From: Eledone cirrhosa
Taxonomy: Eukaryota
Length of the DNA stretch: 64,000 nucleotides
Assembly (NCBI GenBank): GCA_964016885.1
Contig: OZ024753.1
Location: forward strand, 6,634,001-6,698,000
Direction: 5' to 3'
Shown: in pieces, positions 41 to 58,347 of the stretch
Layout of the letters: each line of letters opens with the position of its first letter
Position numbering within the stretch: position 1 is the first letter of the stretch
Notes under the pieces: model-generated
The model's database searches: none
Seen by the model: the letters and a program-made list of their open reading frames with translations, nothing else
What the model was told of the DNA's origin: nothing
Made by a program: the position numbers and the translations under genes

Positions 41-1588
41 TCAGTCTTTATATATTTTCTTTTTAAATATCCCTTCTATAAATACAAATCTATTTCTATG
101 AGAGCTTATTGCTTTAGTAAGTCTTTGTTCAACAAAATACTCTTTGCTTACTAAAGTGGATGATTTTTCAAAATTTCTCATATCTTCATTGTTTTGTTCT
201 CTCAAACATTCAGCTACTTCCAAGTTCCTAATCAACAAAAATCTATGTATTCTTTCTTCGGTTTATTTCTTTCAGCTAGTTCTAAAGATAGCCAAAAATA
301 AACAACGTTGGTTATCGAATTTGAGTGAAAAGAATTTGTCTTATAATCTCTTCCGCTATTTTACTAAATTGGACCATGAATAAACAAAATGAAGCGTAAA
401 GCTTTATTTATGTTTCTATCTTAGAGTAACGAATAAAAATATTAAAATATACAAGTATGTTAATTTATTTTCTGGTATATTTCAAACTAAAATATTAATG
501 TGTTGTGTAAACTATCTATCGTTATTTTATTTTATTTTATTTTATTTTACATGTTCTTTTCGCACTTGCTTTCGATTAGAATAGAAAAAATAATGTTTGA
601 CATCGGAAGGTCATAGAATTGCAAATAGTCACATCCATTGTTTGGCATTTTGCCCTCCAGAATTTCAATCTGCTATGGCCTTGTATGCTTCATTTCAATG
701 TTTGCTGTAGACGAAGTACATATCTTTCGTGTTCGTCTTATAAAAAAGGGGGAAATTAATTGATATTAATTGATATTAATAGAAAAATGACCGTACCAAT
801 ATAAAGTGGATTCATTAGAAGAGTCAGCAACAAACATTGAGAGTTGAAGATATAATTCAATATAGAAAAACTAGTTTAGATTCCGTTTGATTAAGTAAGA
901 GTGAAATAACTGCAGATGTACTTATATAGGGTAAATATTTCTATCTAGCACTCTTCAACATATAGAACTGACGTATATGTTGATATGTGGGATTCAGCGA
1001 CGATTGCATTTAATGTACCCACCCATTTAGTCCAGATTCAGACATGTATCCCAGATCTGGTCTTTTTTTGCAGGGGATTGTATGAAGACGTGTCGGCTTA
1101 TTGTTACACAGCTTTATGCGATTACATCTAACATTAAATATTAATACTAATGATTTATTTTACTGCCTTGTAACCGTTCATCGACAATGATCTGTCACGA
1201 TGATTGTATATGTCTGCCACCACTGAAGAACTAGATATGGTACTTTCCGGTCGAACACTTAAAGCGTAATCAATCATTTGTATTGAAGGAATTGTCGTTA
1301 ATATGGCGGAGGTTAAGTTAAAATCGATCTCAGTATTTAATCCAGGCATGGACAACCCTTTTCGAAAAGCGGGCCACATGAGATATGGCTCATCGTCAGG
1401 TGGGCCGCAAGTGCAAAATGCATTCGTGCCCACATTAAAAACAAAGGGCCGTAACTCAGGTTGTTTTGATATGTTTCTTCAGAATTCGTACACGTTGTTT
1501 TCCTCGATCGTAAAAATGATAGAAAGATAAATTACGACTAACAATGTTGGTCCTCTTCGATTACATTCTGAAGATTCATATTTTAAAA
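41..1588 (-). pseudogene. Decayed protein-coding-like segment (unidentified family)
   Basis: Minus strand has a polypyrimidine+AG acceptor at 1589-1590, then a frame LKYESSEC...ENNVYEF*RNISKQPELRPFVFNVGTNAFCTCGPPDDEPYLMWPAFRKG...MNGYKAVK with one in-frame TGA (1479-1481). Stop-interrupted coding-like text continues to ~600, plus ORF 41-238. No confident homology recognised. Confidence 0.35.
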
Positions 1589-22599: not shown

Positions 22600-23035
22600 A
22601 GGGATATTCAATTTGTTGGTAATTCAACAAATATAAATGTTTATAACTGATTCAGAGCACTCAACAGTTTCAGGAGTATTATATACAATGATATTATATA
22701 AATGGAAACTATATTTATAAAACTATATTTATTCAATTATATATATTTAAAGGGTACCAAAACTTTGGTATGCTATCATCAGATAAAATACGAAGTGTGT
22801 ATTATAAATTTTGACATAACCAAGGAGAATATACCTTAACGGTTCAAGTTATCCCAGGTTATCAAGAGATAACTTGAACCGTTAAGGTATATTCTCCTTG
22901 GTTATGTCAACATTTATAATACACACTTCGTATTTTATCTGATGATAGCGTACCAAAGTGTTGGTACCCTTTAAATATATATAATTGAATAAATATGGTT
23001 TTATAAATATAGTTTCCATTTATTTAATACCATTG
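22600..23035. mobile_element. Palindromic (TA)n-associated element, family C, HHR with G12>T in both arms
   Basis: ~170-bp arms (22685-22854 / 22869-23035); each reads CTGATGA...GTACCAA/TTGGTAC...TAAAT-ATAT-ATA; homologous to 28360-28811. Confidence 0.75.
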
Positions 23036-23062
23036 TGTGTGTATATATATATATATATATAT

Positions 23063-23454
23063 AGGAGGAAGTTATAGTTCACTTGAAGCATTGTGTAATG
23101 AGGTATAAACGTTTGAATTTGTAAAGCCAAACAATGCAGGTATGGATATAGAATTAAACAAATGTAAATGCAAAAGATATTGTTGACAATTAGTCTTTTA
23201 CCTTAGATTTATTTAAATGTTCTTAATTTTCGAGATAATATCTGTTCTTCGGAGGGAAGTAAATGGCAAGCTATTTGGAACAGTGGTTTAACCGCTTTAC
23301 TTCCCTCCGAAGAAGAGATATTATCTCGAAAATTAGGGACATTTAAGTAAATCTAAGGTAAAAGACTAATTGTCAACAATATCTTTTGCATTTACATTTG
23401 TTTATTCTATATCCATAGCAGCATTGTTTGGCTTTACAAATTCAAACGTTTATA
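23063..23454. mobile_element. Palindromic (TA)n-flanked element, ~160-bp arms, HHR-like motif at 23302-23339
   Basis: 23104-23263 is the reverse complement of 23296-23454; TCCCT-CCGAAGA-AGAGAT/ATCTC-GAAA-ATT-AGGGA. Confidence 0.7.
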
Positions 23455-23464
23455 TATATATATA

Positions 23465-23750
23465 TATTAATAAGAGGAATTCCAACCTTGTCTGATTTAC
23501 TCGTTTTATTTACAATCCTTTAAAATATATATAATGGTATTATAATGAAATAGTATGATAGAATATTAAATTCTAAGTGTTAATTGAACTTAGAATTTAA
23601 TATTCTATCATACTATTTCATTATAATACCATTATATATATTTTAAAGGATTGTAAATAAAACGAGTAAATCAGACAAAGTTGGAATTCCTCTTATTAAT
23701 ATAATCTTCTATACACAATCATACACACCCGTGTATATTTACCTATCTAT
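23465..23750. mobile_element. Palindromic (TA)n-flanked element, family E
   Basis: ~115-bp arms around 23579-23588 plus a unique tail; the right arm and tail match 55520-55680. Confidence 0.8.
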
Positions 23751-23751
23751 A

Positions 23752-23796
<45 letters not shown>

Positions 23797-47021: not shown

Positions 47022-47064
<43 letters not shown>

Positions 47065-47067
<3 letters not shown>

Positions 47068-47242
47068 GAAAGGCTTCTACAGGACTAGAACTGTTTCATT
47101 CGGGAGAAATCATTAGGGCTTCCTGATGATTTCTCCCGAATGAAACAGTTCTAGACCTGTAGAAGAATTTCTATATTTAAACACTGCTTTGTATTGAGTA
47201 CCTTACTTACTCTGGTTACCTCCGATTGAGCCCGGGATAAAC
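47065..47242 (+). mobile_element. Palindromic element, family A, with HHR at 47119-47165
   Basis: CTTC-CTGATGA-TTTC(TCCC)GAAT-GAAAC-AG..CT-GTA-GAAG; the inverted arm has a CTAATGA variant; tail GTATTGAGTACCTTAC...; (TA)n flanks. Confidence 0.8.
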
Positions 47243-47921: not shown

Positions 47922-48902
47922 TACATACACGTGCATGATTATTTCCATACACATCTATCCATATATATTTATATATACATTTATAATGTCACATTCACAC
48001 ACAGTTATTTAGTCATTGTAAATGTGACTGAAATATCATTTCTGTTTTAAACGTTTACTGTTTGTATTTATGTTAATTCTAGTTAGATTTTCATTATCTC
48101 AAATATGATCATCAAAAGCTCATTCATAAACAATGCTAGTATATACCCACACATACATCTCTTTCTCTCTGTGTATGTATATATATATATATATATATAC
48201 ACATATATACATACATACACACACATATATACATATATATACATACACACACATATATATATATATATACATACACACACATATATATATATACATACAT
48301 ACACACACATATATATATATATATACATACATACACACACATATATAGACATACACACACATATATATACATACACACACATACATATATACATACACAT
48401 ACATATATATATATATACATACACATACATATATATATATACATACACATACATATATATATATACATACACATACATATATATATATACATACACATAC
48501 ATATATATATATACATACACATACATATATATATATACATACACATACATATATATATATACATACACATACATATATATATATACATACACATACATAT
48601 ATATATATACATACACATATATATATATATATACATACACATATATATATATATACATACACATATATATATACATACACATACATATATATATATACAT
48701 ACACATACATATATATATATACATACACATATATATATACATACACATATATATATACATACACATATATATATACATACACATATATATATACATACAC
48801 ATATATATATATACATACACATATATATATACATACACATACACATATATATATACATACACATATATATATACATATATATATATATATACATATATAT
48901 AT

Positions 48903-51900
48903 AATTAAGTTAAAGATGTACATCCATATATGTATACTGAAATACTAGTATGTATATGAATACACACACGTATACATATGTAGGTGTACCAAGTTTTTTC
49001 ACTGGTCACTTTACTGTGAGTGGCCAGCTATTCTGTATGTAAACACACAGACAAACCGGTTTTTAGAGTCATACTGGTTTTTGAGGAAACACCTCTCCTC
49101 TATTCTCCAGAAAGCCAGACAAGGAATATTGAACTAGTTTCGTTGTTGTTACAACTCATCAGCAATATTTACCTATCTTCCGGCCTCTCTAGAGAATCGT
49201 AAAAGCACATATCGTTATATGCTTTTTCTATGAAAATTAGTAGTGGGCAGACTAATTTGCATAGAGTGTGAGTAAGTACCGGTTCAACGGAGACGATAAA
49301 AACAAATAACGAAACGAAATTAAATTTCGTTTCGTTTGTAACTCACTTTTGTATGACTGACGCTTAAACAATTAAGTTAAAGATGTACATCCATATATGT
49401 ATACTGAAATACTAGTATGTATATGAATACACACACGTATACATATGTAGGTGTACCAAGTTTTTTCACTGGTCACTTTACTGTGAGTGGCCAGCTATTC
49501 TGTATGTAAACACACAGACAAACCGGTTTTTAGAGTCATACTGGTTTTTGAGGAAACACCTCTCCTCTATTCTCCAGAAAGCCAGACAAGGAATATTGAA
49601 CTAGTTTCGTTGTTGTTACAACTCATCAGCAATATTTACCTATCTTCCGGCCTCTCTAGAGAATCGTAAAAGCACATATCGTTATATGCTTTTTCTATGA
49701 AAATTAGTAGTGGGCAGACTAATTTGCATAGAGTGTGAGTAAGTACCGGTTCAACGGAGACGATAAAAACAAATAACGAAACGAAATTAAATTTCGTTTC
49801 GTTTGTAACTCACTTTTGTATGACTGACGCTTAAACAATTAAGTTAAAGATGTACATCCATATATGTATACTGAAATACTAGTATGTATATGAATACACA
49901 CACGTATACATATGTAGGTGAACCAAGTTTTTTCACTGGTCACTTTACTGTGAGTGGCCAGCTATTCTGTATGTAAACACACAGACAAACCGGTTTTTAG
50001 AGTCATACTGGTTTTTGAGGAAACACCTCTCCTCTATTCTCCAGAAAGCCAGACAAGGAATATTGAACTAGTTTCGTTGTTGTTACAACTCATCAGCAAT
50101 ATTTACCTATCTTCCGGCCTCTCTAGAGAATCGTAAAAGCACATATCGTTATATGCTTTTTCTATGAAAATTAGTAGTGGGCAGACTAATTTGCATAGAG
50201 TGTGAGTAAGTACCGGTTCAACGGAGACGATAAAAACAAATAACGAAACGAAATTAAATTTCGTTTCGTTTGTAACTCACTTTTGTATGACTGACGCTTA
50301 AACAATTAAGTTAAAGATGTACATCCATATATGTATACTGAAATACTAGTATGTATATGAATACACACACGTATACATATGTAGGTGTACCAAGTTTTTT
50401 CACTGGTCACTTTACTGTGAGTGGCCAGCTATTCTGTATGTAAACACACAGACAAACCGGTTTTTAGAGTCATACTGGTTTTTGAGGAAACACCTCTCCT
50501 CTATTCTCCAGAAAGCCAGACAAGGAATATTGAACTAGTTTCGTTGTTGTTACAACTCATCAGCAATGTTTACCTATCTTCCGGCCTCTCTAGAGAATCG
50601 TAAAAGCACATATCGTTATATGCTTTTTCTATGAAAATTAGTAGTGGGCAGACTAATTTGCATAGAGTGTGAGTAAGTACCGGTTCAACGGAGACGATAA
50701 AAACAAATAACGAAACGAAATTAAATTTCGTTTCGTTTGTAACTCACTTTTGTATGACTGACGCTTAAACAATTAAGTTAAAGATGTACATCCATATATG
50801 TATACTGAAATACTAGTATGTATATGAATACACACACGTATACATATGTAGGTGTACCAAGTTTTTTCACTGGTCACTTTACTGTGAGTGGCCAGCTATT
50901 CTGTATGTAAACACACAGACAAACCGGTTTTTAGAGTCATACTGGTTTTTGAGGAAACACCTCTCCTCTATTCTCCAGAAAGCCAGACAAGGAATATTGA
51001 ACTAGTTTCGTTGTTGTTACAACTCATCAGCAATATTTACCTATCTTCCGGCCTCTCTAGAGAATCGTAAAAGCACATATCGTTATATGCTTTTTCTATG
51101 AAAATTAGTAGTGGGCAGACTAATTTGCATAGAGTGTGAGTAAGTACCGGTTCAACGGAGACGATAAAAACAAATAACGAAACGAAATTAAATTTCGTTT
51201 CGTTTGTAACTCACTTTTGTATGACTGACGCTTAAACAATTAAGTTAAAGATGTACATCCATATATGTATACTGAAATACTAGTATGTATATGAATACAC
51301 ACACGTATACATATGTAGGTGTACCAAGTTTTTTCACTGGTCACTTTACTGTGAGTGGCCAGCTATTCTGTATGTAAACACACAGACAAACCGGTGCTTT
51401 TACGATTCTCTAGAGAGGCCGGAAGATAGGTAAATATTGCTGATGAGTTGTAACAACAACGAAACTAGTTCAATATTCCTTGTCTGGCTTTCTGGAGAAT
51501 AGAGGAGAGGTGTTTCCTCAAAAACCAGTATGACTCTAAAAACCGGTTTGTCTGTGTGTTTACATACAGAATAGCTGGCCACTCACAGTAAAGTGACCAG
51601 TGAAAAAACTTGGTACACCTACATATGTATACGTGTGTGTATTCATATACATACTAGTATTTCAGTATACATATATGGATGTACATCTTTAACTTAATTG
51701 TTTAAGCGTCAGTCATACAAAAGTGAGTTACAAACGAAACGAAATTTAATTTCGTTTCGTTATTTGTTTTTATCGTCTCCGTTGAACCGGTACTTACTCA
51801 CACTCTATGCAAATTAGTCTGCCCACTACTAATTTTCATAGAAAAAGCATATAACGATATGTGCTTTTACGATTCTCTAGAGAGGCCGGAAGATAGGTAA

Positions 51901-52237
51901 ATATTGCTGATGAGTTGTAACAACAACGAAACTAGTTCAATATTCCTTGTCTGGCTTTCTGGAGAATAGAGGAGAGGTGTTTCCTCAAAAACCAGTATGA
52001 CTCTAAAAACCGGTTTGTCTGTGTGTTTACATACAGAATAGCTGGCCACTCACAGTAAAGTGACCAGTGAAAAAACTTGGTACACCTACATATGTATACG
52101 TGTGTGTATTCATATACATACTAGTATTTCAGTATACATATATGGATGTACATCTTTAACTTAATTGTTTAAGCGTCAGTCATACAAAAGTGAGTTACAA
52201 ACGAAACGAAATTTAATTTCGTTTCGTTATTTGTTTT
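48903..52237 (-). mobile_element. 467-bp HHR tandem array 2: ~5.3 units (HHR on minus) then ~1.8 inverted units (HHR on plus)
   Basis: HHRs at 49126, 49593, 50060, 50527, 50994 (minus) and 51434, 51901 (plus). Inversion at 51394-51395 with GT microhomology; TA/CA-microsatellite flanks. Confidence 0.85.
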
Positions 52238-52257
52238 CATATATATATACATATACA

Positions 52258-55368: not shown

Positions 55369-55473
55369 ATTATTATTAAAGGACTTGAACATCTGAAACT
55401 ACTTCGCTTTTCCTTATTCTCTCTCTCTATATATATATTTGAAAATTGCAAACTTGACTGTCACCACAAATTA

Positions 55474-55512
55474 TGAACCTGAAGATTGCGAAAGCATGAA
55501 AGTACTTGTTCA
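55474..55512 (+). ncRNA. Minimal type I hammerhead ribozyme of family E element (55440-55680)
   Basis: TGAAC-CTGAAGA-TTGC(GAAA)GCAT-GAAAG-TA-CTT-GTTCA; palindromic AAGTACTT; predicted cut after 55507. Confidence 0.75.
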
Positions 55513-55678
55513 ATTAACACTTAACATTTAATATTCTATCATACTATTTCACTATAATACCATTATAAATGTTAAAGGATTGTAAATAAAACGAGTAAAT
55601 CAAACAAAGTTGGAATTCCTCTTATTAATATAATCTTCTATACACAATCATACACACCCGTGTATATTTATCTATCTA

Positions 55679-56240
<562 letters not shown>

Positions 56241-57222: not shown

Positions 57223-57413
57223 GTTATTCCGGGTTGAATCGGAGGTAACCACAGTAAGTAAGGTACTCAATACATAGCAGAGTATAACAGTTTTAATATA
57301 GATGAGATTCTACAGGACTATAACTGTTTCATTCATTAGAAATCATCAGGAATCTCCTGATGATTTCTAATGAATGAAACAGTTCTAGTCCTGTAGAATC
57401 TCATCTATATTAA

Positions 57414-57417
<4 letters not shown>
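57223..57417 (-). mobile_element. Palindromic element, family A (second copy), with complete HHR at 57304-57356 (minus)
   Basis: Minus strand GAGATTC-CTGATGA-TTTC(TAAT)GAAT-GAAAC-AG..CT-GTA-GAATCTC with a perfect 7-bp stem I; mirror arm to 57417. Confidence 0.8.
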
Positions 57418-57453
<36 letters not shown>

Positions 57454-58347
57454 GTATATATGTATGTATGTATGTGTGCGTGAGTGTATATATGTGTGTA
57501 TATATATACACGCATACATACATATATATATATATATACGTATATATGTATGTATGTGTGTGTATATATATGTGTATATATATATACACACACACATACA
57601 TATATAGGTATATATATATCTATATATATATATATATATATAGTAAATATCTGTATACGGATATAAGTGTGTATATATATGTATACGAATGTATGTGCAT
57701 ATATATGTATACGAATGTATGTGTATATATTTATGTATACGAATGTATGTGAATATATATATATGGGTGTGTATGTATGTATGTATGTATATATATATAT
57801 ATATATATATGGGTGTGTGTATATATATATGTATATATATATATATATATATATGGGTGTGTGTGTATGCATGTATATAATTATAAATATATATATATAT
57901 ATATAAATGTATATATATAAATATAAATATATATATATGTATATATATAATTCATACATATATATGTAAAGAAATGTGTGTGCGAAAATCATTCTAATTG
58001 CTAAGTGGGTGTTTAGTGAAATAAGACATCTTTCTGTGTCCTATCGTTATTTATTTCTCTTTAATTTGAACTACGATCGGTGAATCTCAACTCAATTTCC
58101 GGTCTGTAAACATTTTCTCCCGCCTAATATTGAAAAAATATTGTTGGTTAAACCGAGATTTTCTTTTCTATATTAATCGGAAGATATTGAAAATTTAAAG
58201 CTACATTCATAATATTTAATACATAAGACCAACTGAAAGAAATGCCGATGCATATCGATGAAAATTATATATATATATATGTGTGTGTGTATGTGTGTGA
58301 GGGAGCTAGTGTGTGAACGCGTGTGTGTGTATATGTATGTAAAGGTA

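Follow-up and report, generated by a model that had tools for sequence, protein, structure and literature searches.

Genomic copy ends of a Penelope-like element family in Eledone cirrhosa pile up at the predicted cut of its hammerhead motif

The window, a stretch of 64,000 nucleotides of Eledone cirrhosa DNA (assembly GCA_964016885.1, contig OZ024753.1, positions 6,634,001 to 6,698,000), contains two members of a single Penelope-like element (PLE) family. One of them is a pseudo-LTR (pLTR) copy with its tail at 55440-55680. The other is a palindrome at 23463-23703, with a tail to about 23751. Element positions are counted from window 55440 (position 1). The predicted ribozyme cut follows position 68 (55507) and G69 corresponds to 55508. 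The features are as follows.

23463..23589, minus strand: left arm, pLTR positions 69-193, with the short 3' end (193) in (TA)n
23588..23589: AC microhomology between the arms
23590..23703, plus strand: right arm, pLTR positions 82-193 (80-193 counting the microhomology)
23704..23751, plus strand: "tail" (a term used as in PMC11167929), positions 194-241, on a single arm only, running into (TA)n
23744..23794: (TA)n target microsatellite in the right flank, from the sequence
about 23451-23466: shorter TA run in the left flank, from the sequence
55440..55680, plus strand: reference pLTR and tail copy, element positions 1-241, from an uncut template
55474..55512, plus strand: minimal type I hammerhead, predicted from sequence and folding

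The two arms of the inverted repeat at 23463-23703 are 97.5% identical, and the right arm differs from the left one at 1 of 105 aligned bases. Read on the minus strand, the left arm has 23589 as its first base, opens with GTTCAATTAACACTTAG and does not extend into the upstream AAGTAC. By its sequence, the palindrome consists of two PLE pseudo-LTR arms inserted head to head, an ordinary PLE stub. The preliminary description had placed a hammerhead in the 55440-55680 copy, with a cut after 55507, and had the palindrome junction fall exactly on that cut, the arms being joined through AC. The motif at 55474-55512 is as described, AC at 23588-23589 indeed fits both arms, and the site itself is borne out. 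"Exactly" has to be relaxed. Because the shared AC fits both arms, the 5' end of the left arm is element position 69, 70 or 71, which places it 0-2 nt on the downstream side of the predicted cut (55507|55508). By our own arithmetic, a 3-nt window in a 125-nt arm gives odds of coincidence of about 2% for one junction. A single junction is therefore weak alone, and the family was tested genome-wide. Three stubs lie side by side at window 22685-23751. Five more fold-backs, from hammerhead-like families, are located in the window at 22685-23036, 23104-23454, about 28500-28860, 47050-47200 and 57250-57460. Judged by eye, all five turn upstream of the ribozyme core and none at the cut.

The predicted hammerhead is composed of a 5-bp helix I (55474-78/55508-12), CUGAAGA (55479-85), GAAA (55498-501), a 3-bp helix II with a GAAA loop, a palindromic AGUACU and a CUU triplet at the predicted cut. 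The CUGANGA and GAAA core, a helix I that closes after NUH and a palindromic helix III are those of a minimal type I hammerhead. The G10.1-C11.1 pair is absent from the base of helix II, where U47/U48 stand opposite U58 instead. The same U-U replacement (window 55486/55497) recurs in at least three hammerhead families of the genome. Search with the Rfam hammerhead families gave no match at gathering score in the window. This layout, in which helix I resumes right after NUH, is shared by other hammerhead families of the loci retrieved, an agreement that supports the register of the cut. Over 76 arms, the ribozyme core shows 12 differences in 760 cells, a divergence of 1.6% as compared with 2.3-3.7% in the flanks, where subfamily sites are included; this difference does not establish selection on the ribozyme. 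The folding z-score is about 0 and the helix I duplex amounts to -3.0 kcal/mol. With its CUU triplet, U-U in place of G10.1-C11.1 and 5-bp helix I, the ribozyme looks weak. Also in the window are hammerhead units of 467 nt repeated in tandem, 99% identical and lying in both orientations (31133-33108 and 48898-52240).

An exact 26-mer of the family has 7,577 matches in the 3.0 Gb genome, and longer copies extend upstream into a frame with RT and GIY-YIG. At the full-length locus L180, a 775-aa frame matches RVT_1 (E 2.9e-6; 27.6 bits, below the 29.6 cut-off) and GIY-YIG (E 3.3e-6, above the cut-off). This frame thus has an RT followed by a C-terminal GIY-YIG endonuclease, as in EN+ PLEs. Its translation, inspected by eye, displays a DKG motif, a CX4CxxC linker before the endonuclease and the cysteines and histidines of a CCHH finger. 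Excerpts of PMC8557442 list a CX2-5CxxC linker, DKG and a CCHH finger as Neptune/Nematis features. Judged from these motifs, the family is a Neptune/Nematis-type EN+ PLE. At L180, the RT frame (775) is offset by -1 from an N-terminal frame of 476 codons between stops, with which it overlaps. The offset is also found at L181 and possibly reflects a programmed frameshift. A non-LTR retrozyme, made of non-coding tandem hammerhead repeats, was considered and rejected, the copies being stubs or running into the RT ORF. The 3' ends are fixed: 22 of 81 arms end at 193 and 35 at 240-241 (57/81 together). These ends match the two internal start sites and the tail reported in the relevant part of PMC11167929. 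A mirror footprint, with 3' ends at U68, is seen in none of the 81 unselected arms and in none of 150 arms in total. This is as expected if priming needs the downstream sites.

The 5' ends were surveyed in the first 100 matches on C1, chosen without regard to the 5' end. Arms start above -10 in 23 cases, at -10 to +10 in 60 cases (26 at -4), at 11-59 in 4, at 60-67 in 2, at 68-76 in 6 and at 77-137 in 5. The 68-76 class comes to 5 after removal of one arm that the aligner had extended across its own junction. The dominant 5' end (60/100 arms) lies 72 nt upstream of the cut, and the corresponding copies carry an intact ribozyme. Since these copies pass through it, most templates were uncut. Position -4 (L002:1496; 5 nt before window 55440) is both the main 5' end and the main inversion point, and the reference copy begins 5 nt past it. 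A TATA box, TATATAAG, is located 30 nt above -4, with two CCAAT boxes further up. From these elements, -4 is likely to be the transcription start of a TATA-type promoter. Drosophila Penelope differs on this point, with a TATA-less internal promoter according to the section concerned of PMC2377424. A cap-derived extra G at -4 is inseparable from inverted-arm bases. The peak at 68-76, with its downstream tail, has the same shape as the peak at -4. A splice acceptor or a second start at G69 was rejected: there is no AG before G69 and no TATA at -30.

Search for tight inversion junctions at the predicted cut gave 122 rows, and a hand count yielded 77 events among the 100 matches listed. All but three of these events (74/77) need no base upstream of the cut beyond the microhomology. 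The joins fall into GAAC|ACTTA (class A, 21 events), TGAC|ACTTA (class B, 17 events and one similar), an AATT palindrome (class C, 13 events), GAACAATT (class D, 10 events), GAATT (6 events), other joins at exactly G69 (2 events) and other joins at 70-71 (2 events). The window's own join, GAAC|TTAG, accounts for 2 of the 77 events among the matches listed. Because the geometry of the search favours ends near 67-74, controls matter. The same geometry shifted by -13 nt gave 3 events and by +23 nt 5 events, while arms crossing the cut gave 6. By enumeration, microhomology supply is similar in all four windows. A perfect 8-nt palindrome at 61-68 would be the best joining site if cDNAs ran past the cut, yet it was used 4 times, against 21 times for the 4-nt homology just below the cut at 68-72 (p 5e-4). 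In the first 30 loci, events differ in haplotype, flank and polarity and thus represent independent insertions; the two arms of a copy have matching haplotypes. In short-read contigs, four of six skip joints are at positions 71-75. At the level of the family, the pile-up at the cut is far beyond chance.

Ends joined directly to (TA)n involve no hairpin. Reverse-strand patterns, counted as one row per site, are found 301 times for -4 to +8, 19 times for 63-75 and 3 times for 50-62. For (TA)n ends at 63-76, the complete set of 84 rows corresponds to 41 sites, from which removal of 3 local duplicates and 3 unclear cases leaves 35 events (hand count). The first element base is G69 in 11 of them, and in one more with a deletion; it is 70-71 in 4, 72 in 3, 73-74 in 3, 74-76 in 8 and 63-68 in 5. 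At 50-62, 9 sites give 8 events. Overall, 30 events fall on the 9 positions 68-76 and 13 on the 18 positions 50-67 (p 1e-6), the width of the 68-76 window having been picked after the data were seen. For G69 alone within its own window, p is no lower than 0.013, and the matched T|G comparison gives 8 versus 2 (p 0.055). The downstream background is not low. The A+T-rich window 85-97 has at least 18 (TA)n events among 100 matches listed of 197, a lower bound because satellite copies from C21 fill these matches, and the excess of 68-76 over this side is only about 2-2.5-fold (p 0.002-0.01). The C21 satellite, from about 2464900, has units of about 52 nt made of a (TA)n run and a pLTR fragment from near position 85.

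A third sample was collected without regard to the joining partner. This partner-blind search returned 501 rows, as compared with 26 in a reversed-pattern control. The 100 matches listed represent 95 distinct contexts, of which 12 were dropped as not clearly the element and 19 because they were continuous copies with an indel or a short duplication, leaving 64 arms. Their furthest matched position is 60-67 in 14 arms, 68 in 12, 69 in 6, 70 in 6, 71 in 11, 72 in 1, 73 in 10 and 74-75 in 4. Thus 50 of the 64 arms end at 68-75 and 14 at 60-67, with 18 at 68-69 versus 3 at 66-67; the count at 68 mostly reflects one shared T. The edge also occurs in long copies. L180:1-9801 (G000:C1:21871500-21881300) is a 9.6-kb, 97.9% palindrome of two full-length ORF-bearing units centred on G69, and its downstream ribozymes are intact. 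The cut is also where the inverted arm of L181 begins, and this arm is joined to the ORF. The comparison of family copies proposed in the preliminary description therefore came out on its side: ends are not uniform, and an edge at G69 appears in the (TA)n ends, in the inversions and in the partner-blind sample.

These observations can be accounted for by the following scheme. The pLTR promoter would start the RNA at -4. The element's protein would nick (TA)n and prime cDNA synthesis at the two internal start sites, 193 and about 240, with priming from both sides of the nicked (TA)n. Most cDNAs would extend to -4 across a ribozyme that had not cut. A minority of templates would be cut after U68 by the ribozyme, dimeric through the AGUACU palindrome, and cDNA made on the cut RNA would run off at G69. 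Such cases would be roughly 5-8% as many (5 versus 60 arms; 19 versus 301 sites, background not subtracted). Microhomology of 1-4 nt would then link the cDNA end to the target or to the second cDNA, with 0-7 nt lost. Since the start sites are downstream of the cut, cut RNA would stay a substrate and cutting would not be required. We consider it probable that, in vivo, a small fraction of templates is cut in this way by a slow dimeric hammerhead and that reverse transcription runs off the new 5' end. The edge at the predicted cut is real across this one PLE family and probably points, indirectly, to a minor in vivo cleavage route. We also lean, with somewhat less assurance, towards viewing the copies as a fossil 5' RACE library. 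They would record that RNA was cut at the predicted bond in the germ line, that cut RNA was retrotransposed, up to full length, and in what proportion. The original claim, that the cDNA ended at the 5' end created by self-cleavage and left an in vivo footprint, is thus upheld in part. Arm ends are non-uniform, with a sharp upstream edge at G69; on the other side, the junction is ambiguous by 2 nt, the main 5' end is 72 nt upstream (60 versus 5 of 100) and stalling is possible.

Reverse transcriptase might stall on uncut RNA at a folded or protein-bound hammerhead, against the 3' strand of helix I (69-73), the stalled cDNA being joined there. Most templates are uncut, and PMC11167929 describes uncut RNA as the main in vitro substrate of another PLE. 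Many ends lie not at 69 but at 71 and 73-76 (17 class B and 13 class C of the 77 events), inside helix I or at its 3' edge, where a stall would leave them too. Class B lacks one A of class A, which may reflect a bulge that was repaired or an end that truly lies at 71. Helix I is however weak, with 5 bp and a duplex energy of -3.0 kcal/mol. The edge coincides with the scissile bond, on the far side of this helix, and includes clean non-T|GTTC joins; few ends are found in helix II or in the 5' strand of helix I. Moreover, junctions are scattered (6/6, a small sample) in a tandem repeat whose helix I is longer. We hold stalling to be rather unlikely. The repeat in question, a 311-nt hammerhead unit that is no PLE (2,087 pattern rows genome-wide), is inserted as two inverted arrays at L261-L295 (e.g. 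G000:C1:1239800-1244400). Its junctions are scattered, as for a circular template, in all six arrays resolved out of 8 array centres (small sample), and 8 dispersed breakpoints are distributed as 4 on each side of its cut.

Randomly truncated or longer cDNAs could also be joined preferentially at 68-80 because of the local microhomology there (TGTT/AACA and the AATT palindrome), the ribozyme being incidental. Classes A, C and D do use 3-4 nt homologies there (44/77 events among the matches listed), and more 4-nt products are available in the test window, three in all, than in the -13 control. Upstream of the cut, homologies as good or better are hardly ever used (8-nt, 4 events; 4-nt at 61-65, 2 events; 4-nt at 56-60, none), and a 6-nt one downstream, at 91-97, has 2 events. 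Ends joined to (TA)n show the pile-up too, as do joins to unrelated sequence. The controls go against microhomology alone, which is largely refuted; we judge this explanation improbable. Least credible to us is a chance truncation or an assembly fold-back artefact, the pile-up deriving from one amplified master palindrome. Several class B copies are identical around the join, and no short-read contig bridges the window junction among the pieces listed. Against this, the two arms stop at different points (193 and about 241) within different flanks, another haplotype carries the same join at L172, both subfamilies contain classes A and B, and class B is present in both polarities.

Seen in genomic copies at nucleotide resolution, such an edge provides indirect in vivo evidence on PLE hammerhead cutting. 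It also sets the scale, on which cutting would happen as a minor, dispensable route. If this is true, junction mapping would read the in vivo ribozyme activity of any young PLE family from an assembly alone. With the edge, other families can be tested cheaply and 5'-OH RACE has a precise prediction to go on. Prior work already describes inverted pLTRs, tails and PLE hammerheads, as well as the reading of a ribozyme cut from 5' junctions for R2. We found no report of PLE copy ends piled at a hammerhead cut in the literature searched, which also included parts of PMC6765202, PMC7229834 and bioRxiv 10.64898/2026.07.22.740005, most subscription papers being outside its scope.

The family resembles EN+ PLEs with an inverted, 5'-truncated pLTR and a tail (Craig et al. 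2021, PMC8557442): these share the RT with C-terminal GIY-YIG, DKG and CX4CxxC, (TA)n targets, an inverted 5' copy, a tail at one end and a pLTR hammerhead. In the portions of that paper concerned, the function of the hammerhead is called unclear and, unlike here, junction positions are not related to its cut. As in Poseidon PAc of Anolis (Frangieh et al. 2024, PMC11167929), the tail is defined by two internal reverse-transcription start sites, both strands are cut and extended, and uncut RNA is the main template. The ORF starts downstream of the tail in our family and inside the ribozyme in PAc. According to excerpts of the same study, ribozyme mutants did not affect in vitro insertion, and no RNA-seq reads begin or end at the cut, whereas a minor class of genomic copies is edged there in our case. 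The ribozyme is like the minimal dimeric type I PLE hammerheads (Cervera and de la Pena 2014, PMC4209133) in its core, 5-bp helix I, palindromic helix III, location in the pLTR and expected low activity. It differs by the U-U replacing G10.1-C11.1 and by a helix II of only 3 bp. The relevant passages of that 2014 article state that there was no in vivo evidence for PLE hammerheads and propose circles, whereas this family leaves linear cut-end stubs. The R2 HDV-like ribozyme, as presented in part of Eickbush et al. (2013, PMC3774820), resembles our case in that genomic 5' junctions, formed through chance microhomology and with few bases lost, allow its cut to be read. R2 uses another ribozyme class and its cut is the normal 5' end, while here it is a minority end that ranks behind a likely promoter start.
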